From NCBI GenBank assembly GCA_963769425.1, contig CAVYLP010000001.1:1-64000 (forward strand): a stretch of 64,000 nt of DNA. Reading direction: 5' to 3'. The position numbers and the translations under genes are program-made. Below are positions 2,383 to 16,852 of this stretch, one piece after another. Positions within the stretch are counted from its first letter, which is position 1, and the number at the start of each line of letters is the position of its first letter. This DNA is from Candidatus Bathyarchaeota archaeon (GTDB lineage: Archaea > Thermoproteota > Bathyarchaeia > TCS64). The notes beneath the pieces were generated by a model. The model was not told the origin of the DNA. It saw only the letters and a list, made by a program, of their open reading frames with translations, and made no database searches.

Positions 2383-2666
2383 CCATTTGATAGGCGAGTA
2401 TTATGAGTTGTTCCGAGATACGTGAAAGACAGCAAGGAGATATATCCAATAACGAAAATTATGAGATTTAGGGATAGAAAAATGCTAAATTCGCTAAGGA
2501 AAAACTTGGAAAAGAAATAAAAAGTTGAAAAAAATATTGTGCGGCAGATAAGATGGCTGATTTAGAGATTATAATATCAGAAATCCATAAAACCTAACCT
2601 TCTCAAAATGCTTGTAAATAACGTCGTAGGTCCATACTCCCAATAGCCTCCGACAATACAGCCAAA

Positions 2667-2683
2667 GGGGCCGAAGAGGCCCC
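2667..2683 (-). terminator. GC hairpin, possible terminator of the SnoaL-like gene
   Basis: GGGGCC-GAAGA-GGCCCC flanked by A runs on the + strand. Confidence 0.4.
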
Positions 2684-2773
2684 AAAATCTCTTTCTAAGA
2701 AACGTGCGAGGTGAATGAAAGATGATGAGGTCATCTCACTCTAATTTTAGCACACTTGAATCTACTATCTTTC

Positions 2774-3220
2774 TTAAACCACTGCGATGCTATTTGGCCA
2801 AGCTTCTCCGATTTGTTGCTCAGCAGCTGGGTTAGACGCATGCCAGTGAACGATTAGCCACTCATCACCAGATTTCTTCAGGATGATCGTTAGCCTCGTG
2901 GGTATATGCATCTCCCTGGAGCCTATCCTAGCGTAGAATGCTGCTTCCGTCACGGCCCAGGCAAGTTTCCCTTCTGTGAAGATAGACCTCCAATTGTAGA
3001 CGATCGAGCTGGCCTCTGACTGAGCCCAGTCACGTTTGAAGAGGGATTTCACCTCGCTCTTTCCAATTTTTTTCTCATCAGCACCGGTCCCTAACACTAC
3101 GAGGTCATCATCAGGTGAGAATAAGGACATCATCTTATCCAGATCCCTCTCCTCGAATGCCTCGGCAACCTTGTCTAAGGTGGATATTACCCTTGATTCC
3201 GTTTCCTTGGTTGGTTTCAT
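2774..3220 (-). CDS. SnoaL-like / NTF2-fold protein
   Basis: AFEERDLDKMMSLFS N-terminus and RLTIILKK..WLIVHWHAS C-terminus; likely ATG at 3220. Confidence 0.85.
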   Translation of the reverse strand: MKPTKETESRVISTLDKVAEAFEERDLDKMMSLFSPDDDLVVLGTGADEKKIGKSEVKSLFKRDWAQSEASSIVYNWRSIFTEGKLAWAVTEAAFYARIGSREMHIPTRLTIILKKSGDEWLIVHWHASNPAAEQQIGEAWPNSIAVV

Positions 3221-3380
3221 TATAATCCTCCGCAGGTACGTGTACGAGGGTTTGAGCGAATCCGCGCCCAATTAATGTAGTATTTTCAACAGATGATAAG
3301 ATTATCTAGATATGCCCATGCACGTCAGATTCTGCGAGTCTTTCCCGTTTTCCTAACCTTAATCGAGTAATCGAATCATA

Positions 3381-3417
3381 TTATCCCAAATTTACTTTGG
3401 AATAAGCCTCATCTTAC
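3381..3417 (+). repeat. 37-bp intergenic repeat B, copy 1
   Basis: TTATCCCAAATTTACTTTGGAATAAGCCTCATCTTAC; 35/37 identical to copy 2. Confidence 0.9.
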
Positions 3418-3437
3418 ACCAAGGTATTTAGTATACG

Positions 3438-3466
3438 AATAGTCTTATCCTCACTCTCACCTGATA
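3438..3466 (+). repeat. Companion repeat A, copy 1
   Basis: AATAGTCTTATCCTCACTCTCACCTGATA; recurs at 7195 and 11148, degenerate at 7277 and 9453. Confidence 0.8.
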
Positions 3467-3816
3467 TTAATCTGTAAAGTATTGCGCGCGCTAATAACAT
3501 GTTTTCCCCCAACCGGATAAGCTCCCACTGAGGATCGCTTATCACAGACATGCTCCGGCATCAACCAGTTTTATGCACTTATGTAGACTTTCTAAGACAC
3601 ATATTTGATGTAGAACCTTCGGTCAGCTTCGATACTTGTGTAGCTTGACGAAGGATTCTCCCTGTACTCTTACCCTATAATGCTTATTCGCTCGCGCGAA
3701 TTGGACATCCAGTTCTTAATTGGATACGAGGGAAGAATAGAATGATGGGAAGAAGCGGGAGTAAAAGCATAAACTCTTTACTATTAACCATGAAACATTA
3801 GTTCGAAGATGGGACA

Positions 3817-4629
3817 TTGAGTAATCTATGCGACCTTCTTTTTGAGCTATCAAGCGAGGAACGCATGAAAATACTCAATATAATCAATATCAAACGAAGT
3901 AAGCTAACTCAAATTGCAAAGGCATTAGGGATTACCAATCAAGAGTGCAGTAGACACGTTTCTAGGTTAGTCATAGTAGGACTCGTCGAGAAAAAACCAG
4001 ATGGTAATTTTCAGACTACTCCTTATGCCAATCAAGTTATCATGCAACTCAAACCTCTTCATTTTTCCTTGCGTTATCGGAATTATTTCCTCGAACATAC
4101 AACGGAATGGATCCCTCCCGAATTTCAGATGAGACTGGGGGAGTTGAGTAAGTCTCAGCTTGTCGATGATGTTATGGTAGTCTTCAGGAACATTGAGAAA
4201 ATGTACGATGAGGCTGATTTGTACGTTCTCAGGGTAACGGACAGGTTTATGCTCACTACAATGCCCTCAGCCGATAAGGCGTTGAAGAGGGGTGTGACGC
4301 AACGAATGCTGGACCCGGAAGATATAGTTGTTCCCTCGGACTTCAAGAATACACCGAAATATGATGAAGCATTAGCGAATAGGCAGTTTATCAACCGCAG
4401 TATTACTCGCTGTGATTTCTTCCTAGCCATGTCAGAGAAGGTAGTGGCAGCCCTCAGTTTCCCACATATTGATGGGCGTTTTGACTATACGGGTCTAACA
4501 TCTGATGACCCCGATTTCATTAAATGGTGCGAGGACCTATTCGAGCACTATTGGACAGAATCAAAGAAAAAGAATTTTGACTGGCTTCCCAGAAAAATCG
4601 CTGAAAGTAAAAATAAAAAAAATAATTAA
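3817..4629 (+). CDS. Winged-HTH transcriptional regulator (ArsR-like N-terminus, DUF1724/FilR1-like C-terminus)
   Basis: LFELSSEERMKIL..SRHVSRLVIVGLV HTH; C-terminal SDDPDFIKWCEDLFEHYW typical of this archaeal family. Confidence 0.8.
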   Translation: MSNLCDLLFELSSEERMKILNIINIKRSKLTQIAKALGITNQECSRHVSRLVIVGLVEKKPDGNFQTTPYANQVIMQLKPLHFSLRYRNYFLEHTTEWIPPEFQMRLGELSKSQLVDDVMVVFRNIEKMYDEADLYVLRVTDRFMLTTMPSADKALKRGVTQRMLDPEDIVVPSDFKNTPKYDEALANRQFINRSITRCDFFLAMSEKVVAALSFPHIDGRFDYTGLTSDDPDFIKWCEDLFEHYWTESKKKNFDWLPRKIAESKNKKNN

Positions 4630-4775
4630 ATTACATGTAAAATGAAAAGCGAGCGCGCATAATTAATCTTAAATCCTCATGAAATATCATTACGAATTTT
4701 TTTCTCTTGATACCTCATTAGAAAACTGATGGCAAAGATGCGTGCACATGAGAAGCCCATACGATGTGAGATACT

Positions 4776-5927
4776 TTGAATTCTGATGGACCCCAGCAGA
4801 CAAAACCCTCGCAGGGTAGACTCCAGTTCATCGACTTCACACGCGGCATAATAATGGCGATCATGGCTTGGGACCACGTCGCAACCTTCTGGTGGCCCCA
4901 GCACTACGGAAGCGAGGGCCTCGGAGGACTCTTCCCATATCTGGGAGCCGACCTCCTGCCCTTCCTTTCAAGATTCATAACACACTTCTGCGCACCCACA
5001 TTCTTCTTCCTCTCCGGAACCTCGATAGCCATCTCCACCGCGAGGAAGCTTCAGAGGGGTGAGAGCCAAAAGGCGATCTCCCTCCACCTTGTGAAAAGGG
5101 CGGGGATATTAGTCCTCCTCATGGTCTTTATCGAGGGAAACGCCTTCGGACTCAGCCCAATCTACTTCGGCGTCCTCGGCTGCTTCGCAGCCTGCTTCAT
5201 AATATTCAGTGTTTTCAGGAGGCTCCCGTGGCAGATCATACTCACGATCTCCACAGCCATCGTCGTCTTCCATCCGCTACTTGACCTGAGCTTCCTCCCC
5301 AAAGATGGCATCGGGCTCCTCTTGAGACTCTATCTACATGAGCCGAGCTACAATTACTACCCGTTCCAGGTTCTCTACCCCATAATCCCATGGGTCGGCG
5401 TCATGGGACTAGGCTGGTGCCTCGGTGTATTCCTTAATCGCCTAGACAGAGAACAAATAAAGAGATTAGCGAAGCCAATCGCCCTGACGGGTGTCGGCTC
5501 AATATTCGCATTCATAGCAATCAGGTGGCTCAACGGTTATGGTAACCTAGTGCCCAGGAGTGGCAACACAATTCAATCCTGGCTGGCGGTCTCGAAGTAT
5601 CCCCCAGATCTAGCCTTCCTAACAATCACCCTCGGTGGTATGTGCTTCCTGTTGGCGCTAGGCATACAAATAGAGGATAAAAAGTGGTTTAACGGAGGAA
5701 TAATTGGCGCTCTGCTTGTCTTTGGCAGGAACCCCCTCTTCTTCTATGTCACCCACCTTGTCCTTTACAGGGTTCGCCCATTCTATATGACTACACCCCT
5801 TTTCACTATGGATCTATCCACCGTGGTCGTCTTCTGGTTTATTGGACTCGTAGTGTTGTGGAGGCTGTGCCTTAGATATGAGAAGTTTAAGAAATCTCAC
5901 CCCGAGTCGCTTCTACAATATATCTAA
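4776..5927 (+). CDS. DUF1624 / HGSNAT-like membrane acyltransferase-family protein
   Basis: RLQFIDFTRG..MAWDH, RFITHFCAPTFFFLSG, YPIIPW, KYPP motifs; multi-TM. Confidence 0.85.
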   Translation: MNSDGPQQTKPSQGRLQFIDFTRGIIMAIMAWDHVATFWWPQHYGSEGLGGLFPYLGADLLPFLSRFITHFCAPTFFFLSGTSIAISTARKLQRGESQKAISLHLVKRAGILVLLMVFIEGNAFGLSPIYFGVLGCFAACFIIFSVFRRLPWQIILTISTAIVVFHPLLDLSFLPKDGIGLLLRLYLHEPSYNYYPFQVLYPIIPWVGVMGLGWCLGVFLNRLDREQIKRLAKPIALTGVGSIFAFIAIRWLNGYGNLVPRSGNTIQSWLAVSKYPPDLAFLTITLGGMCFLLALGIQIEDKKWFNGGIIGALLVFGRNPLFFYVTHLVLYRVRPFYMTTPLFTMDLSTVVVFWFIGLVVLWRLCLRYEKFKKSHPESLLQYI

Positions 5928-5944
5928 CGTATGGGGGATTACAC

Positions 5945-7067
5945 TTGCTTGATAACAGCTCGATGAAAATTAAGAACAGAAAATCGAGGATAATATGGAT
6001 AGTTGGGCTGATATTTGTAGGTGGCCTTCTAGCCGTGATTACCCTGAACCGAGGAACACATGAAGGTAGTCCTATGAACACATCTCAGCCTATTTATTGG
6101 CCTACAGAAGGGTGGAGGAGAGAGACTCCGGATAAACTTGGTATGAATGGATCCAAACTCGTCGCCATGGTCGACGATATTAAGAGGAGCATACCAACCA
6201 TAGACAGCGTCATCATCATTCGCCATGGCTACATCGCGGAGGAGGAGTACTTCGGTTCCTACAACGCCACAACCAATCACCACCTCTATAGCTGCACGAA
6301 GAGCGTTGTCAGTACACTCATCGGCATCGCGTTAGACAAGAAACAAATAGATAGTGTCGACTCAAAGGTCCTTGACCTTCTCCCTGAATACCATCCCGAG
6401 AACATGAGTGATTGGAAAAGGGACCTAACCCTAAGAGATCTTCTCATGATGTCATCCGGCCTCGACGCGAGAGACGACTACTCCGATAACTGGATCTGGA
6501 TTAACAGGCTCATCAATTCACAGGATGCAGTAAGGTACGCGCTGGACCTCAACGTAACTGTAAAACCCGGCACCACCTTCAAGTACACTGACGCAAACTC
6601 GCACATCCTCTCCGCTATCATCATCGAGAAGACTGGCATGGCCACCCTCTCTTACGCGAAGAAGAACCTCTTCGAACCACTGGGAATACACGACGTAACA
6701 TGGAAAAATGATACGAGTGGGAGGCAGTGGGGATTCTGGGGCCTTTACATGACGCCGTTAGATATGGCGAAAATTGGTTACCTTTACTTGCACAATGGTA
6801 CATGGGACGGCGAGAGGATAGTTTCAGACGGCGTGGACGAGGCAGGCAACATCGAAGAAGATGGATGCCGACCTATTTCCAGGATATGGGTTCCAATGGT
6901 GGGTAAATGACAAAGCAGGATACTACACAGCAGCGGGATACGGAGGACAGTTCATATACGTATTTCCTGATAGGGACATGGTTGTTGTTTTTACTGGCCA
7001 TGACGAGCTGAATTTCGATAACCCTGGAAGACTGTTGGATATGTTTATTTTACCAGCAGTTAAATGA
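5945..7067 (+). CDS. Serine hydrolase, beta-lactamase class C-like family, N-terminal membrane anchor; one apparent +1 frameshift near 6830
   Basis: SCTK (SxxK), FKYTDAN, LYMTPLDMAKIG; ORF 6861..7067 supplies YGFQWW..AAGYGGQFIYVFP; removing one G joins the frames. Confidence 0.85.
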
Positions 7068-7194
7068 GAGAGTGCGCGCTCTACAAGATTTACAGATTCT
7101 ACGCGCGCATGCTCATTTTACTCAAATCTCGCATAGATAGAGTTTCGGAGATAGGTGTTCTTGCTCTTCTACATTGAGGGGTTATTAGACCCTC

Positions 7195-7304
7195 AATAGT
7201 CTTATCCTCACTTCCACATTCTCAATAAGAAAATCTTATCCCAAATATACTTTGGTATAAGCCTCATCTTACGTGCAATAATCTTACCATGAGTTCCACC
7301 TGAT
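7195..7304 (+). repeat. Composite A-B-A repeat cluster (B copy 2 at 7236-7272)
   Basis: AATAGTCTTATCCTCACTTCCAC ... TTATCCCAAATATACTTTGGTATAAGCCTCATCTTAC ... AATAATCTTACCATGAGTTCCACCTGAT. Confidence 0.9.
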
Positions 7305-7577
7305 TGTTACCAGCGATTGTATGGTTGATTTGACTGTGATTCAATCTGCATACTACATGGTAGCTACTAAGGGAGTACTAGTAGCAGCAGTCTAATAATT
7401 ACACAACATGAGGATGACCCAGAGAAACATAAAAGCCACTCTGGAGACTGGTAAACTACTTTTCCTAGCCGAATTCCAAAAAAAGCTGATGAAAACGTAT
7501 GAGATATGCGCCATAATGTTATAAGATAGAAAAACGCTCACAAAAAATATTCTGTGTTTCAGAAAAAGAGCTGAAGA

Positions 7578-9392
7578 ATGCATATGAGAGCTAAGATCTT
7601 GAAGCTTCTAGTTTCCATATTTATTATCAGTTTTGTTTTGTTTCCGGCCAATATGGTCCACGCGGACGCATTGCTGACTACAGTAAAAGTGGGAGCTGCC
7701 CCCTGGGGTGTAGCCTATGATTTCGCTAAGGGAGAAATATTCGTGGTCAATTCCGGCACAGGCACCGTCTCAGTATTTTCTGACAGCGACTTTACTATAC
7801 TTGCAACAGTGACGGTAGGGCAGCAACCCTATAGAGACATTTACGATTCTGGCAGAGGCGAAATCTTCGTTGCTAACTATGGTGCGAACTCAGTCTCAGT
7901 GATATCAGATGTAACCAATACCGTTTTGGCTATCGTGCCCGTGGGGTCTTCACCCTCATCTTTTGCCTATGATTCGAGTAAGGGTGAAATATTCGTAGCC
8001 AATTCAGGTGGCAACACAGTCTCCATTATTTCAGACAACACTAACTCCGTCGTGGCTACCGTGACCGTAGGCTCTAACCCCTATGACTTAGATTATGATT
8101 CAGGTAAGGGCGAGATCTTTGTCGCCAACTCTTTCTCCCGATCCGTTTCCATCATATCAGACATTAACAATCAAGTGGTTGCAACCGTACCCGTAGGAAG
8201 TGGCCCATTAGGCGTTGCTTATGATTCTGCCAAAGGCGAGGTCTTTGTAGCCAACTCCGTCTCCAACACCGTTTCGGTGATATCAGATAGCAGTAACACC
8301 GTCGTCGCAACTGTGAATGTAGGAACTAGTCCAGGGCCCATGGTCTATGATTCAAACACTGGCGAGATATTCGCGGTTAATAGAGGTTCTGGCTCGGTCT
8401 CTGTCATATCGGACAGCACAAATGCGGTCATTACCACCTTAACCGTGGGAGCCAAGCCCTATGGCGCAGCCTATGATTCTGGCAGAGGCGAGATATTTGT
8501 TACCAATTATGGTGATGGCACGCTCTCGGTCATGTCCGATTCCTCTAATACCTCTACTTTACCGGGCACAAACGCAACATCAGACCTATTGCAACAAATC
8601 TGGGTTCCAGAGCCAACGAACACAGTGGTGGCAGTCGGTGTATCTGCAGTGGTGGTTGGGGCGGTTTCACTGCTTTTTTCCGCCATAAACGACCCATTAG
8701 CGGGTTTTGGTGGAGCATTGAGCGAAAAAATAAAGGACGTAATCCCCGACGAAATAAGGGAGTGGCTTGAGGAAGTAGTGTCTTCTAGACGCGAGTTGGA
8801 AGCCGCGGATAAGACCGGTTCTCCCTTTACTCCAACCAGAGCCGAAGTGTTGGCATACGTTACGTCGATAGTCGTTCTGGCCATCGCCTTCTCCTATGTG
8901 AAGATCATTAACCTTAGCCAGCTATGGGAGTTGCTGCCCCTTTTCTTCGCTACGAGTGTTATTGTTGGATTCGTCCAACACTTCTTTTCAATAGTGTACC
9001 TGCGAAGCAAGGGCGTGTGGAGTGAATACACGATTTGGCCCTTAGGGCTTTTCCTCTTCCTCTTCACAACATTCTCCTTCAGGGTTCCGTTCTCTTCGCC
9101 AACACGGAGCATACACTCCAAGAAATTCACCGAACGATTAGGTGCCGTCGCTTCTGCAGCTGAGATTCTCATAAGCTTAGCCTTCGCCGGGTTATTCTTC
9201 CTGCTATTGAAAAGCGGTTACGTGGCTGTTGGTGATGCAGGTTTGTCTATGTGCGTGATCGGCTCTTTTTTCGGTACTTTCCCCGTGTCTCCGATGAGTG
9301 GGAAGGACATTTTCGACCACAGTAAGCGTCTTTGGGCGACGCTCTTTAGCATAACATTACTAATCTTTGTTGCCTGGTTGCTCCTAATCTAA
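7578..9392 (+). CDS. YncE/YVTN beta-propeller surface protein with C-terminal multi-TM domain
   Basis: Signal peptide; seven ~42-aa repeats VGxxPxxxAYDSxKGEIFVAN..SVSVISD; several TM helices at the C-terminus. Confidence 0.9.
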   Translation: MHMRAKILKLLVSIFIISFVLFPANMVHADALLTTVKVGAAPWGVAYDFAKGEIFVVNSGTGTVSVFSDSDFTILATVTVGQQPYRDIYDSGRGEIFVANYGANSVSVISDVTNTVLAIVPVGSSPSSFAYDSSKGEIFVANSGGNTVSIISDNTNSVVATVTVGSNPYDLDYDSGKGEIFVANSFSRSVSIISDINNQVVATVPVGSGPLGVAYDSAKGEVFVANSVSNTVSVISDSSNTVVATVNVGTSPGPMVYDSNTGEIFAVNRGSGSVSVISDSTNAVITTLTVGAKPYGAAYDSGRGEIFVTNYGDGTLSVMSDSSNTSTLPGTNATSDLLQQIWVPEPTNTVVAVGVSAVVVGAVSLLFSAINDPLAGFGGALSEKIKDVIPDEIREWLEEVVSSRRELEAADKTGSPFTPTRAEVLAYVTSIVVLAIAFSYVKIINLSQLWELLPLFFATSVIVGFVQHFFSIVYLRSKGVWSEYTIWPLGLFLFLFTTFSFRVPFSSPTRSIHSKKFTERLGAVASAAEILISLAFAGLFFLLLKSGYVAVGDAGLSMCVIGSFFGTFPVSPMSGKDIFDHSKRLWATLFSITLLIFVAWLLLI

Positions 9393-9452
9393 TGAGATTT
9401 TTGAAATGGGTGAAAAGGTACGGACTGCGGACATTAACGTACATCTACCCAC

Positions 9453-9529
9453 TCAATGACCCTATCCTAACTTCCTAAATATTCTAATAATCTTAACCCA
9501 AATTCACTTTTGCATAAGCCTCATCTAAC
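9453..9529 (+). repeat. Degenerate A plus repeat B copy 3 (9493-9529)
   Basis: TTAACCCAAATTCACTTTTGCATAAGCCTCATCTAAC, 32/37 identical to copy 1. Confidence 0.85.
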
Positions 9530-9711
9530 GTACAGCAGATTGATCGAGGAATCAGTTCCATATAGGTCGCGAACGCTCGCCCCATAACCCGTGATAATAA
9601 ACTTGGAAACAAGTTCTAATTTGCACACGAGTCGCAAGCAACCATGCTATTGAATCGATCTAATCACAAAAAGATATACACCCGTACCTTACAAAGACAA
9701 CCGTATCCTGC

Positions 9712-11115
9712 ATGACAGACTATGGCAAAGTGACACCAGCATTCCTGCAGCAGCTAGAGGAGGTTGTAGGCTCCAAGGGCATCTCGGTTATCGGCGAAGA
9801 CCTCGTGAAACATAGCAAAGATGAGAGCCTTGAGCCCCCTCACACTCCTGAAGTGATCGTGTACCCACTGAGTACCGGCGAGATATCGTCGGTCATGAAG
9901 CTAGCCTCCAGTAACAACATCCCGGTGACCCCCCAAGGATCTAGAACTGGCCTCAGCGGCGGAGCGCACCCCATCTATGGTGGTATAGCCCTCAGCCTCG
10001 AGCGAATGACGAAGATTCTAGAGATCGATGAAGGAAACCTGATGGCTGTAGTCGAGCCGGGTGTCCTCATCATGGATCTGCACACAGAGACGGAGAAGAA
10101 GGGTCTCCTATACCCCCCTGACCCGGGTCAAGAGTCGGGCAGTCTCGGTGGGAACATCTCCACCAACGCTGGTGGCGTTAAGGGGATGAAGTATGGAGTG
10201 ACGAGGGACTTCGTCCAAGGCCTCGAGGTGGTCTTACCCAGCGGGGAAGTAATCACGATCGGTGGAAGGCATGTTAAGAACTCAACGGGATACGAATTAA
10301 TCGACCTATTTGTAGGATCGGAGGGAACACTGGGTGTGGTTTCAAAGGCTACGCTCAGGCTTGTACCGAAGCCGAAGAACACCGCCATCATCTACGTCCC
10401 ATTCAATTCTGTTAGGGCAGCAACAAAAACAGTCTCCGAGATAGTTAGCAGGAAGGTTGTACCATATGCTTTGGAATATGTACCCCAACACGCGGTATTG
10501 ACCGCTGAGCGTTTCCTAGAGCGGACGTTGCCTGACCACGATCACCCAGCTTACCTCATCGTTGGAGTCGATGGAAACAGTGAGAATGAAATCGATAGAC
10601 AGCTCGACGTCGTGGGTGAGGTGTGCACGGAGATGGGTGGTGCTGACGCGTATCTCGCCGACACCCCATCTCAACAACAGCAATTATGGGAGGCGAGAAA
10701 GTGCCTTTTCGAGGCGTACAAGGCGTTCTATGAGATCGATGAGGTAGACGCCTGTGTCCCCAGAAGTCGGTTCCCAGATTTCGTGGAGGGTGCAGAGAAG
10801 ATCTCGGAGAGGCTCGGTATCCTGATCTCGACGATTGGGCATGCGGGCGATGGTAACGCTCACAGCATTATGGCTCGTGAACAAATTGAAGACAGGGGGG
10901 CTTGGATGAAGAAGCTTGATGTAGCGATCGAAGAGCTAATTGATCTCAGCCTCGGGATGGGTGGTACAATCTCGGGCGAGCATGGAGTTGGCTACGCTAA
11001 AAAGAAGTACTTAGTGAGGAAAGTCGGCGATACGCAGGTGAATCTCATGAAAGTGATTAAGCGTGGGTTTGACCCTCAGAATATCTTGAACCCTGGGAAA
11101 GTTATAGATATTTAG
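9712..11115 (+). CDS. FAD-linked oxidase, GlcD / D-lactate dehydrogenase family
   Basis: GSRTGLSGG, GGNISTNAGG..KYGVTRD, GSEGTLG, GHAGDGNAH, ISGEHGVG, DPQNILNPGK. Confidence 0.93.
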   Translation: MTDYGKVTPAFLQQLEEVVGSKGISVIGEDLVKHSKDESLEPPHTPEVIVYPLSTGEISSVMKLASSNNIPVTPQGSRTGLSGGAHPIYGGIALSLERMTKILEIDEGNLMAVVEPGVLIMDLHTETEKKGLLYPPDPGQESGSLGGNISTNAGGVKGMKYGVTRDFVQGLEVVLPSGEVITIGGRHVKNSTGYELIDLFVGSEGTLGVVSKATLRLVPKPKNTAIIYVPFNSVRAATKTVSEIVSRKVVPYALEYVPQHAVLTAERFLERTLPDHDHPAYLIVGVDGNSENEIDRQLDVVGEVCTEMGGADAYLADTPSQQQQLWEARKCLFEAYKAFYEIDEVDACVPRSRFPDFVEGAEKISERLGILISTIGHAGDGNAHSIMAREQIEDRGAWMKKLDVAIEELIDLSLGMGGTISGEHGVGYAKKKYLVRKVGDTQVNLMKVIKRGFDPQNILNPGKVIDI

Positions 11116-11147
11116 AATTACATATGTTGTGTCGCAGAACTGTATGA

Positions 11148-11171
11148 TCTTATCCTCACCTTCACCTGATA
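11148..11171 (+). repeat. Companion repeat A, further copy
   Basis: TCTTATCCTCACCTTCACCTGATA, 22/24 identical to the copy at 3443. Confidence 0.8.
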
Positions 11172-11290
11172 CTCAATTATGAATTGAACAACGCACGCGT
11201 CAATGGCTACTTGCCCTTGAAGTCGGTCTTCTTTCCGACAGCCCTTGTTATGAGAAAAATAAGTTATAAAATATAAACAGAGACGTTTAA

Positions 11291-11318
11291 ATATCGACAT
11301 CGATATCAATGTCGATAT
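11291..11318. promoter_or_regulatory. Putative PadR operator overlapping a TATA box
   Basis: Perfect inverted repeat ATATCGACAT-N8-ATGTCGATAT next to TTTAAATA (11286-11293), just upstream of padR. Confidence 0.65.
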
Positions 11319-11325
11319 CACGAAG

Positions 11326-11874
11326 ATGATTCACGTGCGATGGCCTAGAAATATCGCTATGGTGCCGAAGGGGTTCCTGAGGTACAAAGTCCTCAATCTC
11401 CTAAGCTTGAAGTCAATGTCCGGCTCAGAGATCATGTCGGAGATAGAGGTGCAAACTGGGGGGAAGTGGAAGCCTAGCCCAGGCTCAATCTACCCTCTCC
11501 TTGCATGGTTGCAGGACAACGGGTTTGTGGTAGAGGCTGAGGTATCTGAGGGGATCAAGAGGTACTCTCTTTCGGAGAAGGGGAAAGGTTTGCTCTCGGA
11601 GATGGAGAAGACGTGGAAGACGATGAGTGAGAAACTCTCTCATCTCGGTTCTGATTTCGGCTTCATGGGGTCATCTTGGAGAGACTTGATCGCCAGCAAG
11701 TCCTTTGAACGGCTTCATGAGCCGACTGCGAACCTCGCGGCGGCGCTCTGGAGATACCACAAGAAAGCCATACAGATTGACTCGGAGGATTCTTCGGAGG
11801 AGGTTAAGGTAGCACTGGAGGAAGCCGCTAGAAGAATCAATCACGTCGCTGAGAGACTGGAGGATAAGAAATGA
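11326..11874 (+). CDS. PadR family transcriptional regulator
   Basis: KGFLRYKVL..WKPSPGSIYPLL..KRYSLSEKG. Confidence 0.9.
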   Translation: MIHVRWPRNIAMVPKGFLRYKVLNLLSLKSMSGSEIMSEIEVQTGGKWKPSPGSIYPLLAWLQDNGFVVEAEVSEGIKRYSLSEKGKGLLSEMEKTWKTMSEKLSHLGSDFGFMGSSWRDLIASKSFERLHEPTANLAAALWRYHKKAIQIDSEDSSEEVKVALEEAARRINHVAERLEDKK

Positions 11875-11969
11875 CCGACAAGGCTATTGTTGTTGATGAA
11901 TTTAGACATTCAAACTTGCTTGTTCATGGGATAACAAGTGAATCTTCGAATAGGAGTCGATATCAATGA
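11871..11969 (+). pseudogene. 32-aa mini-ORF, probable remnant of an ABC ATPase gene
   Basis: MTDKAIVVDEF...; start overlaps the padR stop (ATGA) and stop overlaps the permease start (ATGA). Confidence 0.45.
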
Positions 11970-13222
11970 GACTCTTTGATATCATCGATTCAGCTTGGAG
12001 TGGAGTTAAATCTCGCAAGTTCCGATTCGTGCTTAACCTCATCGGCATCCTCATCGGCTGCGCCGCTGTCACCGGCTTGATATCTCTTACCCAGGGACTC
12101 AGCAACAACATAAGCGGCCAGCTTGGCACCCTCGGTGCATCGACAATTACTATCTTACCCGGAAGTACTTTTAATAACCCTATAAGCGGTGGCTCAGCGC
12201 CAAGCAGCTCCGTCGGAGGCGGCGCAGCAACTAATCCATTCGGCGGTGGCTCAACTGGTACACGAACCTTAGATTACAAGGTTGTTAGCACGATTTCGAA
12301 GATCTCAGGTGTCCTCTATACGGTTCCAGTCGACTCGGGAGGATCAGTGACTTACTCCGTGAATGGAAAGACTTACTCCCACTCATTGACGGGGTCAACG
12401 GATGTCTACTTCCAAGTCAACAAGTCACTTGAAATTGTTCAGGGTAGAGCACTCCTCAGATCCGATACCGGTGTCGCCGTGATAGGCGCGGATATTGCTC
12501 AACCATCTGATTCATCCAATCCGATAATCGGGGTTGGTGATCGTATCAAGGTCACAACGACCGTGAACGACATAACCAAACAGTTGACGTTACGAGTAGT
12601 GGGTGTGCTTAAGAGGGCTGGCGGCAGCTTCGGCTCAAGTGACAGCGCCATCATCATACCGTTGGGGACATTCGACCAGTTCTTCGAGAAAAATGGTAAA
12701 TACAGCACAATTCAGGTGCTAACTTCCTCACCCGATTTAGTCGATTCCGTTTCGCAAACGATTAAAACCAAGGTAAGCAACATCAGCGTCATCACAGCGG
12801 CTGCCGCTCAGGGTTTAGTCACGAGCATTCTCGGGACTATTCAGGCAGTGCTCGGCGGCATCGCAGCGATCAGTCTTGTGGTTGCCGGAGTTGGCATTAT
12901 CAACACTATGACGATCAGTGTTCTTGAGAGGACTAAGGAGATTGGTGTACTGAAGGCCCTAGGGACGAAGGCGAGGGATATCCTATTTCTCTTCCTCTCG
13001 GAGGCTGTGCTAACGGGCATAGTCGGAGGAATAATCGGGGCGGCCCTTGGCTTTGGGGTGAGCAGTTTAGCGGGCAACATCATCGGATTGGCGCCTGAGT
13101 TAAGCTTGCCCCTTGGGCTCATCGTTGTTGGTTTTGCCGTCGTGACTTGCGTTGTCTCGGGTATTTACCCCGCGTGGCACGCAGCTCAGATGAATCCTGT
13201 CGAGGCCCTGAGACATGAGTAA
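11966..13222 (+). CDS. ABC transporter permease, MacB/FtsX family
   Basis: GIAAISLVVAGVGIINTMTISVLERTKEIGVLKALG and YPAWHAAQMNPVEALRHE. Confidence 0.95.
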   Translation: MRLFDIIDSAWSGVKSRKFRFVLNLIGILIGCAAVTGLISLTQGLSNNISGQLGTLGASTITILPGSTFNNPISGGSAPSSSVGGGAATNPFGGGSTGTRTLDYKVVSTISKISGVLYTVPVDSGGSVTYSVNGKTYSHSLTGSTDVYFQVNKSLEIVQGRALLRSDTGVAVIGADIAQPSDSSNPIIGVGDRIKVTTTVNDITKQLTLRVVGVLKRAGGSFGSSDSAIIIPLGTFDQFFEKNGKYSTIQVLTSSPDLVDSVSQTIKTKVSNISVITAAAAQGLVTSILGTIQAVLGGIAAISLVVAGVGIINTMTISVLERTKEIGVLKALGTKARDILFLFLSEAVLTGIVGGIIGAALGFGVSSLAGNIIGLAPELSLPLGLIVVGFAVVTCVVSGIYPAWHAAQMNPVEALRHE

Positions 13223-15017
13223 AAAAATAGAAGACACTGCGGGTCAGAAATCCGATTCAGGCAAAAAATCTCAACAAGGTAATCCACTACTTCGGATCCT
13301 TGGCTACCTAAGGCCATATTGGCGAATAATCGCATTATCGATATTGCTACTATTTGCTTCTGTGGCCTCTGATCTCGTAATCCCCACCCTAATTCAACGG
13401 ATAATAGACGATGGAATAATCTCCAAGAATATTACAGTCGTAGTAACATTAACCGCGTTAATGATCGGTGTGGCTCTACTTGGCGCAGGGGCTACAATAG
13501 GTAACACGTTCCTCGCCATAAGGGTCGCTCAGAGCTTCGCCGCCGATGTTAGAAGCTCCGCATATCACAGGATACAGAAGTTTAGCTTCGGAAACCTTGA
13601 CAAGTTCCAGACAGGCCAAATTATAGTCAGACTCACGAGCGACGTAAGCTCCGTCCAAATGATAGTGATGATGGGGCTGAGGATGTTCATCAGCGCCCCG
13701 ATAATGATCGTCGGCAGCATCGTGCTCATGTTCATTATCAACGCGGAGCTCGCCAGAATCGTCCTTCTCCTGCTCCCCCTCACCCTCGTACTCGCCGTCG
13801 TATTCATCTGGAAAGCTCTACCAATGTTCCTGGAGGTTCAGAAGAGGCTCGATAAGCTCAACACAGTTCTTCAGGAGAACCTCGCAGGGGTCAGAGTCGT
13901 AAAAGCCTTCGTGAGGCAGAACCACGAATCGATCCGCTTCGAGGAAGCGAACACGAGTCTCACGAAACAGACGACGAAGGTGCTCACGATTTTCGCAATT
14001 CTGTTTCCCACGATGCTGATAATAATCAACCTAAGCGTACTCAGCGTCATCTGGTTCGGAGGACTTGAGGCAATAGGCGGGAGGTTCAGCGTGGGCGACA
14101 TACTCGCCTTCATCAACTATCTACTCATCGCCATTTTCCCACTGATATTTCTCGCCATAATGTCCAGCCAACTCTCAGCCGCTGAAGCCTCAGCTCAACG
14201 AATCTACGAAATAATCGACTCCGAGCCTCAGGTCCAAGAGAAGCCCGATGCAAAGCAGCTCACAGACGTCAAAGGAAAGGTCATCTTTGAGGACGTTTCC
14301 TTCAGCTATGCAGGTGACCTTAGCGAGCCAGTGCTTCAGGGCGTCAACCTAGTCGCTGAGCCAGGCCAGACCATCGCGATCCTCGGCGCCACTGGCTCAG
14401 GGAAGTCGACGTTAATCGACCTAATCCCACGCTTCTACGACGTTACAAAAGGCAGGCTCACCGTTGACAGCATCGACGTGAGAGACGTAACCCTCGAGTC
14501 GCTTCGCTCAAACATAGGCGTCGCTCTCCAGGAAGCTATCCTCTTCAGCGGTACCATACGCGACAACATAAGATACGGTAAACCCGAGGCCTCAGAGGCC
14601 GAGGTAATTGCCGCCGCGAATGCCGCGCAGGCTCATGAGTTTATAATGAGCATGCCCAAAGGCTACGACACGGACGTAGGCGAGAGAGGTGCAGGTCTCT
14701 CTGGTGGGCAGAAGCAGAGGGTCAGCATCGCGAGGGCCCTGCTGGTCAAGCCTAAGATACTCATCCTCGATGACAGCACGAGCTCGGTAGATGTCGAGAC
14801 CGAGGCGAAGATTCAGGAACAATTAGACATGATCATGGAGAATAGGACGAGCTTTATAATCGCCCAGCGTATCAGCACGGTTCTCAAAGCAGACAAAATA
14901 GTAGTCCTCGACAAGGGTCGAATCGTCGCTGAGGGCACACATAATGAGCTGATGAATACGAGCTCCATCTACAGGGAGATATACGACTCCCAGCTTGGCG
15001 GAGGAATCAGGCTATGA
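13215..15017 (+). CDS. Heterodimeric ABC exporter, TM287-like subunit (degenerate site)
   Basis: TMD+NBD; GATGSGKS, LSGGQKQR, Walker B ILDDSTS, IAQR instead of the His switch. Confidence 0.95.
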   Translation: MSKKIEDTAGQKSDSGKKSQQGNPLLRILGYLRPYWRIIALSILLLFASVASDLVIPTLIQRIIDDGIISKNITVVVTLTALMIGVALLGAGATIGNTFLAIRVAQSFAADVRSSAYHRIQKFSFGNLDKFQTGQIIVRLTSDVSSVQMIVMMGLRMFISAPIMIVGSIVLMFIINAELARIVLLLLPLTLVLAVVFIWKALPMFLEVQKRLDKLNTVLQENLAGVRVVKAFVRQNHESIRFEEANTSLTKQTTKVLTIFAILFPTMLIIINLSVLSVIWFGGLEAIGGRFSVGDILAFINYLLIAIFPLIFLAIMSSQLSAAEASAQRIYEIIDSEPQVQEKPDAKQLTDVKGKVIFEDVSFSYAGDLSEPVLQGVNLVAEPGQTIAILGATGSGKSTLIDLIPRFYDVTKGRLTVDSIDVRDVTLESLRSNIGVALQEAILFSGTIRDNIRYGKPEASEAEVIAAANAAQAHEFIMSMPKGYDTDVGERGAGLSGGQKQRVSIARALLVKPKILILDDSTSSVDVETEAKIQEQLDMIMENRTSFIIAQRISTVLKADKIVVLDKGRIVAEGTHNELMNTSSIYREIYDSQLGGGIRL

Positions 15018-16852
15018 GCAACAAAGCTCCATCCAGTAGACCTGAATCAGGTCCAGGGAGAGGGGGGCCAGGCATGAGCTTCGCAAGAGGAGTATCCCGA
15101 GCGAAAAACCCCAGTGTGACACTCTCGCGCCTCATCCGGTACCTCCTCGCCTACAAGCTCCAGCTGGCTCTAATAGGCATTTTCGTTATCCTCGGCACAG
15201 TGGCTTCATTATTAGGTCCATACTTCGTGGGTGTTGCCGTTGACCAGTACATAAGCACAGGGAACGTCCCCGGGCTCTACGGCGTCGTCATCATCCTAGG
15301 TCTCATTTACGCCGTGGGCTACTTGTCCAATGCACTACAGGCCATCCTCATGGCGAGGATATCCCAGAAGGTACTGAAGCAGCTGAGGAAGGAGCTCTTC
15401 GAGCACCTCCAGACCCTCAGCCTGAGCTTCTTCGACAAGCGCACACAGGGGGAGCTAATGAGTAGACTCACAAACGACATAGACGCAATAAACCAGGCAC
15501 TCAGCCAGAGTGTCACGCAGCTTATTTCGAGCTTCCTCTCCATCATCGGAATCCTGATTGTAATGTTCATCCTCAACGCCTGGCTGGCTCTAGGTAGCCT
15601 CCTCGTGTTTCCCCTCATGATATTTGCTACACTATTCATCGGTAGCAAAACACTCGCAGGCTTCAGAGACCTACAGAGGGACCTCGGCAGGCTAAACAGC
15701 ACGATGGAAGAGACCATCAGCGGTGAGCGAGTCGTATTAGCCTTCAGCAGGCAAGATCGTGTGCTGAAGGACTTCGACGAGACGAACGAATCAGTACGCA
15801 AAGTCGCTACGAGGGCGAACAGCTACGCCTTCGTAATCATGCCTATAATGAACATCATGGGCAGCGTTGCGATCGCAGTGGTAGCCGGGCTCGGGGGCTG
15901 GATGGCAATCCAGGGCATGGTCACGATCGGCGTCATCACCAGCTTCATCTTCTACGCCCGCAACTTCTCGCAACCACTCCAGCAACTAGCTAACCTCTAC
16001 AATACCATTCAATCTGCACTCGCTGGCGCGGAGCGCATATTCGAGACGATAGACGAGAAGCCCGAGTTAAACGATAAACCTGACGCGAAGCCACTCAAGG
16101 AGATAAAAGGGGACATCGTCTTTGAGAATGTGGATTTTAGCTATGACGGCAAGACACCGATTCTAAAGAATATGAACTTCCACGCGGAGCCCGGGCAGAT
16201 GATGGCACTAGTAGGTCCAACTGGGGCGGGAAAGACAACGATGGTCAACGTTCTCAGCAGATTCTATGACATCCAGTCCGGTTCAATCAGGATCGATGGC
16301 GTCGACATCAGGGACGTCACACGAGACAGCCTAAGGAAGCAGCTCGGGACTGTATTGCAGGATAACTTCCTCTTCGCTGATACCGTGATGGAGAACATCC
16401 GCTACGGCAACCTGGAGGCCACGGACGAGGACTGCATAGCTGCAGCGAAACTGGCGAACGCGGACCAATTCATCACGCGTCTACCCGAAGGCTACATGAA
16501 CATGCTCACGGAGAGGGGTAGCAACCTAAGCCAGGGGCAGCGCCAACTACTCGCCATCGCGAGAGCCGTCATTGCGGATCCGAAAATTCTGATTCTAGAC
16601 GAGGCTACGAGTAATGTTGACACGAGGACTGAGATCAGGATTCAGGAGGCGCTTCTTAAATTGATGGAGGGTAGAACGAGTTTCGTCATCGCCCACAGGC
16701 TGAGTACTATCAGGAAGGCGGATCAGGTCCTAGTGATTCGGGACGGCGAGATCGTGGAGCGTGGTACGCATGACTCATTACTCTCCGAGAGGGGCTTCTA
16801 CTACAACCTCTACGTGAGCCAGTTCAAGGGAACTCCAGTAGGAGTATCATAA
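15014..16852 (+). CDS. Heterodimeric ABC exporter, TM288-like subunit
   Basis: GPTGAGKT, LSQGQRQ, ILDEATS, IAHRLS. Confidence 0.95.
   Translation: MSNKAPSSRPESGPGRGGPGMSFARGVSRAKNPSVTLSRLIRYLLAYKLQLALIGIFVILGTVASLLGPYFVGVAVDQYISTGNVPGLYGVVIILGLIYAVGYLSNALQAILMARISQKVLKQLRKELFEHLQTLSLSFFDKRTQGELMSRLTNDIDAINQALSQSVTQLISSFLSIIGILIVMFILNAWLALGSLLVFPLMIFATLFIGSKTLAGFRDLQRDLGRLNSTMEETISGERVVLAFSRQDRVLKDFDETNESVRKVATRANSYAFVIMPIMNIMGSVAIAVVAGLGGWMAIQGMVTIGVITSFIFYARNFSQPLQQLANLYNTIQSALAGAERIFETIDEKPELNDKPDAKPLKEIKGDIVFENVDFSYDGKTPILKNMNFHAEPGQMMALVGPTGAGKTTMVNVLSRFYDIQSGSIRIDGVDIRDVTRDSLRKQLGTVLQDNFLFADTVMENIRYGNLEATDEDCIAAAKLANADQFITRLPEGYMNMLTERGSNLSQGQRQLLAIARAVIADPKILILDEATSNVDTRTEIRIQEALLKLMEGRTSFVIAHRLSTIRKADQVLVIRDGEIVERGTHDSLLSERGFYYNLYVSQFKGTPVGVS

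Follow-up and report, generated by a model that had tools for sequence, protein, structure and literature searches.

On Acinetobacter plasmids, gene modules are flanked by XerC/XerD sites; these pdif sites are 28 bp long (11-6-11) and stand in inverted orientation on either side of the modules. An array of modules bounded by repeats was found in 64,000 nt of DNA of a sediment archaeon, Candidatus Bathyarchaeota archaeon (Thermoproteota; Bathyarchaeia; TCS64), comprising positions 1 to 64,000 of the forward strand of contig CAVYLP010000001.1 in assembly GCA_963769425.1; this whole stretch is called the window. We put the probability at roughly one half that its two repeats, A and B, serve as junctions in an integron-like gene-cassette array specific to one genus. 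Single genes or small groups of genes would come, go and be reshuffled at these joints much as in a bacterial integron, with different sites and a putative enzyme.

All window copies of A and B are intergenic and on the plus strand (Table 1). An earlier note on this DNA had described B repeats at 3381, 7236 and 9493 in one orientation, and these were recovered: the B core ATAAGCCTCATCTTAC, with at most one mismatch, was matched three times in the window, and 100 dinucleotide-preserving shuffles yielded 0.00 matches on average. By our own reading, copies 2 and 3 share 35/37 and 32/37 positions with copy 1. The inverted repeat claimed for B was found as the dyad CTTA-NN-CCAAA-N5-TTTGG-NN-TAAG, together with the invariant CCTCAT; B is a small palindrome able to form a hairpin, and AAGCCTCATC is at least 90 % conserved among 55 distinct copies from the window's genome and its relatives. 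The A copies claimed earlier are real as far as the pattern TCTTATCCTCAC-N3-CACCTGAT goes, which with up to three mismatches had three matches in the window (3443, 7200 and 11148) against 0 expected; the copy named at 9453 is degenerate (about 15/23 positions by eye), and the first coordinates of A were about 5 nt too low because the preceding AATAG had been included. A more diverged copy at 7282 reaches 71 %. In nhmmer searches the two repeats belong to a single composite unit of about 145 nt, A'-B-A, in which A' and A are direct and not inverted repeats; A also stands alone. The sub-parts of the family are modular (A, B, a GGGTTTGGGTTTGGGG box and two linker types), a TCTTATCC box is common to A and B, and the 3' end of A carries a CAC(C)TG..CAGTG inverted repeat. 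Behind B of unit 3 no recognisable A was present. Conservation of the repeats extends to over 100 copies from about 12 genomes, and the conservation of A and B exceeds that of the coding sequences behind them.

Table 1. Repeat units and genes of the array in the window
Feature	Position	Strand	Description
SnoaL-like gene	2774..3271	-	Pfam SnoaL_3 6.4e-22; oriented opposite to the repeats; directly upstream of unit 1
Unit 1	3327..3487	+	weak A' region, B 3381-3417, long linker, A 3443-3466; nhmmer E 3.7e-24 against the unit profile
Module 1	3817..6910	+	three genes; Pfam
FilR1-like winged-helix regulator, module 1	3817-4629	+	Pfam
DUF1624/HGSNAT membrane acyltransferase, module 1	4776-5927	+	Pfam
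Beta-lactamase-fold serine hydrolase, module 1	5945-6910	+	Pfam
Unit 2	7188..7335	+	A' 7200-7223, B 7236-7272, 9-nt linker, diverged A 7282-7305; nhmmer E 4.2e-33
DUF4760 gene-start remnant behind unit 2	7321..7395	+	MVDLTVIQSAYYMVATKGVLVAAV, then stop; Pfam DUF4760 is matched by full-length genes that share this start
Module 2, NHL-repeat beta-propeller protein	7578..9392	+	Pfam NHL 3.9e-17
Unit 3	9447..9575	+	degenerate A' 9453-9476, B 9493-9529; nhmmer E 1.2e-23
Module 3, GlcD-type FAD-linked oxidase	9712..11115	+	Pfam FAD-oxidase_C 3.2e-60, FAD_binding_4 1.5e-38
A-only site, last repeat of the array	11147..11185	+	exact A-pattern match; nhmmer profile positions 96-134
Block downstream of the last site	11326..16852	+	PadR regulator, MacB/FtsX permease, two ABC exporters; Pfam for the first three genes

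Synteny with relatives, whose conservation across the repeats would have spoken against the earlier idea of module capture, is lost exactly at the repeats. The modules of the window are spread over different contigs in three congeners (G002, G012, G016), and the homology blocks stop at or beside sites. The gene trio of module 1 lies together on G002:C24 without repeats, and its DUF1624 gene occurs alone between two A sites on G012:C7; homologues of module 2 are on other contigs in G016 and G012, those of module 3 on G002:C10 and G012:C26, again without repeats. Beyond the last site, window positions 12272-16834 are syntenic in G008 (79 %), and the frame 15014-16852, outside the Pfam scan, was called an ABC exporter because it falls within a nucleotide block (13280-16833) recurring in the genus. 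The SnoaL-like gene upstream of unit 1 is probably itself a cassette; its homologue in G002 (78 % at the nucleotide level, window 2772-3309) is located inside a co-oriented repeat array, locus L055. Module 1 is a natural presence/absence difference with its joint in the B core. Near-relative contigs from 4/4 metagenome runs of four studies connect position 3401 directly to 7257 and omit the 3.86-kb module 1, one of them with 405 nt to the left and 653 nt to the right of the joint. The joint falls inside an identical 16-nt B core that contains CCTCAT, the spacer at which the earlier note had proposed to look for breaks in gene content. Fifteen to sixteen letters fit both sides and resolve the position no finer; short-homology recombination would also give a joint confined in this way. 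Metagenome depth over 3768-6937 was 0 in 18 of 40 bin-by-run cells and 0.22 to 5.14 in the remaining ones. Homologous cassettes have a common junction at the downstream A, on its 5' edge, and an upstream boundary that varies in its distance behind the upstream A.

The repeat family was held by 14 of the 41 relatives searched and is confined to one genus of the Bathyarchaeia. The architecture seen in the window recurs in at least seven other genomes and in a second array of the window's genome, and the arrays of congeners are long and co-oriented. Of 88 neighbouring pairs that lie within 5 kb of each other among 136 sites, 87 share one orientation; the median gap is about 700 nt, and the single switch of orientation is at an array head. 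By our own crude codon-usage calls, in loci picked for their repeat content, 67 genes between sites point the same way as the repeats and 40 the opposite way; in single-gene segments the numbers are 32 and 13. Reversed genes with Pfam support in the second array include those for a DinB-family protein and a nitroreductase. Sites abut the 3' ends of reversed genes and, in the second array, also lie between convergent gene ends. The functional unrelatedness noticed earlier in the window extends to the arrays at large: 107 Pfam families were present among 87 proteins, mainly small hydrolases, redox and stress enzymes, and the Pfam scan of these 87 proteins revealed no mobile-element genes.

Conserved array heads with four to seven copies of GATACTCTTAAACATC (iterons) were observed at four loci in two genomes, head DNA being present in only 2 of 18 genus genomes. 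At two of the four loci, the gene of a 441-aa tyrosine integrase with an N-terminal zinc ribbon, or its N-terminal part, is divergent from the array. An assignment of this protein to IntI was rejected (70.7 bits against a cut-off of 265). Its family occurs in 11 of the 18 genus genomes, including G001, G006 and G010, which gave no repeat match, and G007, which gave a single one, and was not found in some repeat-rich ones (G011, G005). One complete array, with 16 sites on G002:C34, forms the cargo of a tRNA-integrated island of 18.6 kb that encodes such a zinc-ribbon tyrosine integrase and carries iterons; on one side of the array lies the tRNA gene and on the other a 24-nt repeat of the 3' end of this tRNA (22/24 identical), and the island is absent from the syntenic locus of the window's genome. 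The head integrase abuts the tRNA gene and thus may serve island integration only. The window's genome has a remnant island at tRNA-Pro that ends with an A site. Its single tyrosine recombinase is encoded 90 kb away from the nearest array, and the orthologs of this protein are not distributed like the repeats. A search for a XerA-grade protein in this genome found none; the best recombinases reach 63-76 bits against a cut-off of 220 for the XerA model. Thirteen recombinases from four genus genomes were compared: three lie within 1.5 kb of a site, these three are mutually unrelated, and no consistent linkage to sites was found. Inconsistent recombinase linkage, variable upstream boundaries of cassettes and a B joint resolved to 15-16 nt all speak against a cassette array. 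Of the earlier proposal of att/dif-like scars left by a module-capturing system, the part on module joints in a cassette-type array stands; a dif- or att-like nature in the strict sense stays a candidate reading, as the tyrosine recombinases found are not consistently linked to the repeats.

In an integron-like array, each module of one to a few genes would be enclosed by units in direct orientation. When two units recombine, the intervening module would leave as a circle keeping one hybrid unit, and the reverse reaction would put such a circle into a resident unit; repeated use would generate co-oriented arrays regardless of the direction of the cargo genes. We infer that the exchange is site-specific. 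Candidate binding features would be the shared TCTTATCC box, the B dyad followed by the invariant AAGCCTCATC, and the inverted repeat of A, and the catalyst may be an Xer/IntI-like tyrosine recombinase, e.g., the zinc-ribbon integrase at the array heads.

It is possible, at rather unfavourable odds, that no dedicated machinery acts here. A would then be promoter and 5' leader of the fast-expanding DUF4760 family and B a conserved linker, the many near-identical copies would offer portable homology for ordinary homologous or short-homology recombination, which, besides illegitimate insertion, would move, pick up and remove genes between them, and the array would merely look like an integron. 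In a role that the earlier note did not consider, A serves a DUF4760 gene family as its conserved upstream leader. Of 128 A copies, 46 have a GTGAT-type ribosome-binding motif and a start MVD... at 8 to 60 nt behind them, and 14 of these 46 run into full-length frames of at least 120 aa. Five MVD-start frames were scanned, two among the 14; four match DUF4760 and one DinB_2 instead. In our own reading, the geometry of A fits an archaeal promoter and short leader. Pairing between the CAC(C)TG of A and the CAGTG at the ribosome-binding site is possible in 86 % of cells, compared to 14-57 % with the partner slid, which would suit a leader hairpin; however, this hairpin showed no covariation, its score being reached by 119 of 500 shuffles, and no structure was predicted by RNAalifold. 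Truncated gene starts were found behind 30 of the 46 sites. Clean exchange does not predict them, and together with the variable upstream cassette boundaries they point to events that are not site-specific. On the other hand, the sole observed gain/loss event is in B, not in the leader, and its longest identity is 16 nt. Since the module-less form was seen in all runs and the identity is that short, the window's genome would probably have gained a 3.9-kb circle through very short homology. The 40 of 107 array genes facing against sites at their 3' ends and the better conservation of A and B relative to the genes behind them also disagree with a leader origin, which leaves the conserved heads with iterons and integrase unexplained.

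A shared operator or promoter of a regulon, bound by one factor such as a FilR1-like or PadR protein and only incidentally linked to gene content, had been kept as an alternative by the earlier note and is now improbable. B is a dyad of the kind bound by dimeric regulators, the TCTTATCC box is shared by both repeats, two window copies precede regulator genes, and most copies in the window's genome sit upstream of a same-strand gene. Against this, genes between sites are unrelated and face either way, which argues against a promoter or operator; the orientation of sites is not tied to that of genes, sites occur between convergent ends, A-to-start-codon distances in the window's genome range from 54 to 351 nt, orthologues of the window genes in relatives are mostly without repeats, and operators would not be expected to be co-oriented 87 to 1. 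Non-autonomous mobile repeats (MITE-, REP- or BIME-like) inserting into intergenic DNA, with rearrangements as a secondary effect, are quite unlikely. Such elements would resemble this multi-copy, intergenic, lineage-restricted family with its modular sub-parts and its hairpin-capable palindrome, yet the direct A' and A leave the unit without terminal inverted repeats, the copies are clustered and co-oriented instead of scattered both ways, no Y1 (RAYT/IS200-type) transposase, TnpB above cut-off or serine recombinase was found in the window's genome, and the comparisons made revealed no otherwise syntenic intergenic region that differs by the presence of a lone unit. An assembly artefact with an unreal module order is very unlikely: repeats of 40-150 nt can mis-join metagenome assemblies and metagenome contigs do join 3401 to 7257, but the assembly is probably contiguous, as the genome of 2.55 Mb comes in only 6 contigs, the architecture recurs in other genomes and in the second array, and even if misplaced, module 1 stays unit-flanked.

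Among described systems, pdif modules share with the integron-like array short dyad sites that bound discrete modules in varied contexts, and a presumed host recombinase with none inside the module. The A/B sites differ: they are composite and directly oriented, the B dyad has a loop of 5 nt, and no protein of XerA grade was found in the window's genome. Tandem accretion at tRNA att sites is similar in that direct repeats of a site separate successively acquired segments; the G002:C34 array, in an island that has a tRNA 3' end and its 24-nt repeat as its limits and the integrase adjoining the tRNA, and the tRNA-Pro remnant ending with an A site fit this pattern. The internal A and B repeats, however, are not tRNA-derived, the segments are single genes of 0.4-3 kb and not whole elements, and 16 internal sites lie inside one tRNA repeat pair. 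Integrons and integrase-less attC clusters (CALINs), including the archaeal integrons of Ghaly et al. (2022, PMC9668308), likewise have co-oriented sites bounding mostly single unrelated genes, similar cargo (small hydrolases, DinB, nitroreductase, glyoxalase, stress proteins), mostly arrays without an adjacent integrase, and a tyrosine recombinase gene divergent from the array head, here in two relatives. The earlier statement that the array fits neither attC nor CRISPR patterns was confirmed. An attC identity of the A/B sites was rejected: they have no long imperfect hairpin (ssDNA folding z -1.5 to +0.8) and no conserved AAC/GTT triplets, and consist of direct repeats (A', A) around a 27-nt dyad. 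Further differences from integrons are the zinc ribbon and low IntI score of the head integrase, the reversal of about a third of the array genes, the many cassettes that carry their own flanks, and at least one array being island cargo. Reused promoters or leaders also place the same conserved non-coding segment before unrelated genes, and A has promoter-plus-leader geometry before DUF4760 genes; in contrast to such segments, the A/B sites also occur directly at the 3' ends of reversed genes, keep one orientation throughout whole arrays and fall at gain/loss joints.

The two repeats of the window, the 24-bp element A and the 37-bp element B with its dyad and CCTCAT, were found on the plus strand in intergenic DNA at the places reported in the earlier note, A being displaced by at most 5 nt. 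The B core with at most one mismatch matched three times in the window against 0.00 expected from 100 shuffles, the A pattern with at most three mismatches three times against 0 expected. When all copies of the genome were aligned, A and B turned out to belong to a single composite unit of about 145 nt: first A', a version of A that frequently lacks its 3' end, then some 10 nt of A-rich sequence, B, a linker and finally A. The linker between B and A was 9-10 nt long in 22 cases and 23-28 nt in another 13, and A was missing behind B in 20. Eight full or nearly full units and about nine A-only sites are present in the 2.55 Mb of the source genome (six contigs), the window being the initial 64 kb of its contig 1. 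One hundred twenty-eight distinct A copies were followed by B (14 copies), by a ribosome-binding motif and start codon (46 copies) or by other sequence (68 copies). Directly 5' of a subset of A copies a box, GGGTTTGGGTTTGGGG(C/T)CATAG, was observed, a third module of this mosaic repeat family.

Coordinates of the repeats and of associated features (C, contig; L, numbered extracted locus; G000, source genome; G002, related genome; L027 holds the array on contig 34 of G002)
Feature	Sequence	Coordinates
B copies	window	3381, 7236, 9493
A copies	window	3443, 7200, 7282, 11148; degenerate copy near 9453
Full or nearly full units	source genome	window (three); C1:313.6 kb; C1:335.1 kb; C4:188-191 kb (three)
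Box GGGTTTGGGTTTGGGG(C/T)CATAG, examples	G000; extracted loci	C1:336001-336030, C6:905130-905166; L009, L033, L034, L038, L041, L045
Truncated gene start behind A	window	7321-7395
GC-rich tracts	window; extracted loci	3483-3491, 4653-4661, 4738-4750, 7100-7112, 11191-11200; L040 3205-16105; L041
Paralogous segments	window / G000	1-865 / C1:409412-410276 (74 %); 1814-2372 / C1:405993-406552 (77 %)
Syntenic regions at the island	G002 / G000	C34:35001-56189 / C6:302114-322979
Intron-bearing tRNA	L027; L304	2018-2124; 2244-2350
Integrase gene, 441 aa	L027	2142-3467
Integrase fusion gene	L074	668-1846
GATACTCTTAAACATC clusters	L027; L074; L087; L063	3653-3775; 1985-2110; 1522-1648; 7765-8130
Remnant at tRNA-Pro	G000 (L297)	C1:92467-94695 (2467-4695)
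Conserved 350-nt sequence	G000; G002; L049	C1:375372-375726, C4:385757-386102; C34:75832-76188; 10238-10589
Sole tyrosine recombinase gene	source genome	C4:281837-283093

The central proposal of the earlier note, that the repeats are joints between gene modules, was supported, and gene content differed exactly at the repeats, both across species and among near relatives in metagenomes. Synteny across the repeats was not conserved: in G002 the regulator/DUF1624/serine hydrolase module was located on contig 24, the gene for the GlcD oxidase on contig 10, and contigs 1 and 23 carried the ABC genes; a second related genome, G012, had the DUF1624 gene alone between two A sites on contig 7, with NHL and GlcD genes on contigs 34 and 26, respectively. 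Behind the last site of the window (12272-16834), synteny was kept in a third relative, G008. At position 71885 of contig 6 of the source genome and at the orthologous place in G002, homology extended through the upstream gene to A and ended right behind A. Two loci within G002 had nothing in common before A; their identity was about 80 % across A plus leader and rose to 98-100 % some 90 nt past A. A five-site array of 6.8 kb in G002 lay between two blocks syntenic with the source genome, where the counterpart is an AT-rich stretch of 2.2 kb in which no gene was called. Homologous cassettes with sites on one or both sides occurred in different genomes (L013/L034, L027/L030, L027/L034, L022/L042, L032/L039/L041); their common junction was the 5' edge of the downstream A, and how far behind the upstream A they started varied. 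Paralogous copies of the window's left part lie on the same contig, so that it belongs to a dispersed duplication.

Metagenome contigs from four runs of four studies, covering sediment and peat, were aligned on positions 2500-12000, most pieces being 90-99 % like the window. The empty-site junction that the earlier note had proposed to look for was present in all four runs as a joint from 3401 to 7257, skipping 3855 nt; in one run a single contig of 1058 nt spanned 2997-3401 and continued with 7257-7914. The joint falls into the B core, which includes CCTCAT, and its position is defined to 15-16 nt, since as many letters, the ATAAGCCTCATCTTAC common to B copies 1 and 2, fit both sides. A single ancestral event may be common to the four runs. 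Depth over 3768-6937 was low in every run, with 0 in 18 of 40 bin-by-run cells and 0.22-5.14 in the other 22. From the skipped joint and the low depth it follows that near relatives possess the SnoaL gene, one hybrid unit and the NHL gene but lack the regulator/DUF1624/hydrolase module. Recombination between two direct units would have exactly this arrangement as its product or as its substrate; a circular form of the module was not seen. Because the module-less form occurred in all runs and the module is present elsewhere without repeats in G002, we think that the genome of the window gained it. Four minor joints (3412 to 7194, 3470 to 11148, 7217 to 9489 and 9526 to 7197) had flanks as short as 18-37 letters, or additional letters separating the two flanks, and were therefore attributed to repeats from other loci. 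Stretches without cover, e.g., 9791-11058 in run X3, were left out, as no contig joins across them. We give a probability of about one half to the reading of the A/B repeats as a dedicated, integron-like site-specific system. The core of the earlier interpretation, repeats as module junctions, is supported.

The organisation of the arrays was analysed in loci picked for holding repeats, not for orientation. Among 136 sites (E at most 0.01), 87 of the 88 neighbouring pairs within 5 kb were co-oriented, with a median gap of 705 nt (quartiles 534 and 1561). Genes were called with a simple codon-usage score trained on the source genome, in that genome and in 20 array loci from six congeners. Forty-five of the 85 inter-site segments contained one called gene (32 in the direction of the sites, 13 against), 17 segments contained none, and in total 67 genes between sites were oriented with the sites and 40 against. 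A second array of the source genome, at 188-192 kb of contig 4, comprises four co-oriented sites; an M20 peptidase and an unknown gene run with them, a DinB-family protein and a nitroreductase against them, and one A is located between two convergent gene ends. The cargo was heterogeneous. Pfam assigned 107 families to 87 array proteins, 14 of which were DUF4760 proteins. Others were alpha/beta hydrolases, metallo-beta-lactamase fold, DinB, Usp and SnoaL proteins, dienelactone hydrolase and nitroreductase, besides M20, gamma-glutamyltranspeptidase, phosphotriesterase, flavodoxin, old yellow enzyme and others. Pfam identified no mobile-element genes among the 87, and none of eight cassette proteins compared with the PADLOC models for defence functions had a match. 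Nearly every intergenic spacer contained GC-rich tracts of alternating purines and pyrimidines (9-21 nt; GCGCGC, ATGCGCGCAT and GCGTGCAC types), inside and outside arrays, in otherwise AT-rich surroundings. In the source genome (CG)3 had a density of 0.43 per kb in non-coding and 0.26 in coding DNA. (CG)3 and GCGCGC-type tracts were enriched 6.5-8.6 fold near A and occurred at several homology breaks. As cassette ends they were rejected, with 0.92 per kb inside arrays versus 0.64 outside, and GCGCGC-type tracts were present in nearly all non-array spacers of L040. Being a general intergenic motif of these genomes, the GC-rich tracts were excluded from the system; a lineage-wide role as promoter, terminator or Z-DNA-prone signal is possible.

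Behind the 46 A copies with a gene start, a ribosome-binding motif of the GTGAT type and a start codon that opens MVD... followed 8-60 nt downstream. Fourteen of these frames were open for at least 120 aa and two for 60-119 aa, and 30 stopped within 60 codons at varying points; one such remnant lies in the window behind A. Of five MVD-start frames scanned, two of them from the 14, four matched Pfam DUF4760 and one DinB_2. A is also the leader of DUF4760-type genes, which gives the strongest competing explanation, homology-driven shuffling at the conserved leader and linker with the leader acting as portable homology. Its main support is in the 30 truncated gene starts and the variable upstream boundaries of cassettes, which fit untidy, partly illegitimate events better than clean integron-type exchange; overall, we judge it rather unlikely. 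The CAC(C)TG of A was complementary to a CAGTG at the ribosome-binding site in 86 % of the cells compared, versus 14-57 % with the partner slid, and for this inverted repeat a hairpin of the leader and a core site in duplex DNA are both conceivable. RNAalifold predicted no structure for A plus leader, and the two named helices were complementary with no covariation. The probability left over is shared by regulatory, MITE-like and artefact readings. A regulon operator or promoter, for which fixed position and orientation were observed in the DUF4760 subset alone, is disfavoured by the 40 of 107 genes reversed, the sites between convergent gene ends, the unrelated functions and the orthologues in relatives, most of which have no repeat.

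The source genome encodes one tyrosine recombinase and, by our searches, neither a serine recombinase, nor a TnpB above cut-off, nor a Y1 transposase (PF01797, matched in 6 of 14 control genomes). As a partner of the repeats this recombinase was rejected: its ortholog pattern differs from theirs, with matches, mostly weak, in 7 of 18 genus genomes. G002, G012 and a further relative, G016, had 7-13 very diverse tyrosine-recombinase family matches each. Thirteen recombinases were compared, that of the source genome, the integrase on contig 34 of G002 and 11 others from these three relatives. The tyrosine recombinase next to a copy, which the earlier note had suggested to look for, was encountered in part: three of the 13 lay within 1.5 kb of a site (G002:C34, G012:C29, G016:C10), these three were mutually unrelated at E 1e-3, and the window contains none. 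On contig 34 of G002 a 441-aa integrase with an N-terminal IS1-like zinc ribbon is divergent from an array of 16 sites. Its best matches were XerA with 75.6 bits (cut-off 220) and IntI TIGR02249 with 70.7 bits (cut-off 265); NF011946 gave 40.7 bits (cut-off 435). Between integrase and array are about 330 nt with four copies of GATACTCTTAAACATC, which could be arm-type integrase sites or plasmid-like iterons. This head recurs with 89 % identity in G012 on contigs 69 and 92 and partly on contig 29, where the partial head sits exactly at the one place at which orientation changes, with a minus-strand array on one side and a plus-strand array on the other; arrays invariably point away from the head. 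On contig 69 the N-terminal 219 integrase residues are fused in frame to an unrelated C-terminus, by eye possibly ketopantoate reductase-like. Across loci, clusters of 4-7 direct GATACTCTTAAACATC copies were observed, some with an inverted GAGTATC behind them; the head that contains them shows about 89 % conservation between two species. When the 16-nt iteron was searched for in the species collection, where some 280 chance matches are expected by our estimate, several copies together occurred at the known loci only, an uninformative outcome. Head DNA was found in only two of the 18 genus genomes. The integrase family was found in 11 of the 18, often as C-terminal fragments only, and also in three genomes without a repeat match and in one with a single match. 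The scatter of C-terminal fragments across the genus recalls integrases that split their own gene upon integration.

One array, that on contig 34 of G002, is the cargo of a tRNA-integrated genomic island. The region before it is syntenic with the source genome, and in both genomes an intron-bearing tRNA gene (Rfam, 42 bits) comes after this region. On the G002 contig, 18 nt separate the tRNA from the end of the integrase gene; next come the iterons and the 16 sites with cargo, and the distal end, 18.65 kb from the tRNA end, is marked by 24 nt that repeat the tRNA 3' end with 22 identical positions. Synteny is back about 1 kb past this repeat, and between the corresponding flanks of the source genome lie only about 0.8 kb. 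Given this structure at a tRNA, the integrase may serve island integration only. The window contains no tRNA, and its contig begins at position 1, the side where a head would lie. ARAGORN reported no tRNA at either of two loci where the Rfam model found a 107-nt intron-bearing tRNA; since it misses such genes, its blanks in these archaeal loci are unreliable. In the source genome a 2.1-kb remnant was observed at a tRNA-Pro, in the order tRNA, integrase fragment, about 1.7 kb, truncated A and a 25-nt repeat of the tRNA 3' end; the truncated A carries a 44-nt segment also present behind the unit at C1:335111. A 350-nt sequence, 85-88 % conserved, occurs twice in the source genome and in two congeners, in G002 57 nt behind the distal tRNA repeat of the island.

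Single-gene cassettes would be inserted and excised at the composite A/B sites as double-stranded DNA, without an attC-like hairpin, and the catalyst would be a Xer-like tyrosine recombinase with a zinc ribbon, which would also move entire arrays in the form of tRNA-integrating islands whose head bears iterons. That this recombinase and the A/B sites form a new archaeal gene-capture platform of a Bathyarchaeia genus, an integron analogue of independent origin, is put forward tentatively, at less than even odds. A search with unit 2 found the repeat family in 14 of 41 genomes, i.e., the source genome, 12 of 17 other species of the genus and, with a weak match, the single genome of the sister genus; there was no match in 22 genomes, several of them incomplete, from 17 other genera of the class. 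Some congeners have high copy numbers, with up to 173 candidates in a first-look count. The exact A 20-mer was present in 92 stretches of a species collection of 185,579 genomes, with about one chance match expected by our arithmetic, and all except four were from assemblies titled Bathyarchaeia or Bathyarchaeota. Bathyarchaeia are among the most abundant sediment archaea; to our knowledge none is genetically tractable and little is known on their acquisition of accessory genes. If the repeats are recombination sites, the integron problem of stockpiling and reshuffling single genes would have been solved a second time, independently, with a site read as duplex DNA instead of a folded strand and a cargo of hydrolases, DinB, nitroreductases and stress proteins that parallels bacterial chromosomal integrons. 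If the repeats act as portable homology only, they would still illustrate how a conserved leader makes a gene family a capture hotspot. The A/B repeats are usable as PCR or search anchors for the mobile gene pool of this lineage in metagenomes, and the presence/absence difference at 3401/7257 is a concrete, testable event.

A surface-level literature search on Bathyarchaeia repeats, integron-like archaeal arrays and DUF4760 yielded no report of the A/B family. CRISPR arrays have repeats of 25-40 nt and non-coding spacers of similar length, whereas the gaps here span 0.4-3 kb and hold genes, as the earlier note had argued. REP/BIME-RAYT and IS200/IS605 repeats are palindromic and differ by their Y1 HUH transposase, not found in the source genome; their copies are scattered or alternate in orientation, unlike the co-orientation of 87 to 1 here. 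In contrast to MITEs, the unit ends A' and A are direct repeats and orientation is uniform within arrays; no filled/empty pair with target-site duplication was seen in the comparisons. A pdif site has 28 bp with two 11-bp arms and a 6-bp spacer, and its modules are flanked by inverted sites in the presence of a Xer recombinase; the B dyad has an 11-5-11 layout in which two inner positions are mismatched, all sites are direct, and the best XerA-model scores were 63-76 bits against a cut-off of 220. The attC site is an imperfect inverted repeat of 55-140 nt (R''-L''...L'-R') with RYYYAAC and GTTRRRY ends that folds as single-stranded DNA. Six A/B units or sites folded as single strands gave z values of -1.47 to +0.84 relative to shuffles, with only a 27-nt B hairpin forming; positions 5 and 6 of the B stem were mostly mismatched, GTT/AAC was limited to a minority variant, and no Rfam family reached its gathering score. 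The sites are therefore not attC, again as the earlier note had it, without a conserved AAC/GTT, and the head integrase is far below the IntI and XerA cut-offs, no IntI-type integrase being found next to an array. Integrons and CALINs are also known in archaea, with canonical attCs (PMC9668308). The A/B arrays have in common with integrons co-oriented sites and mostly single-gene cassettes of unrelated functions, and by function they behave similarly to chromosomal integrons and CALINs.
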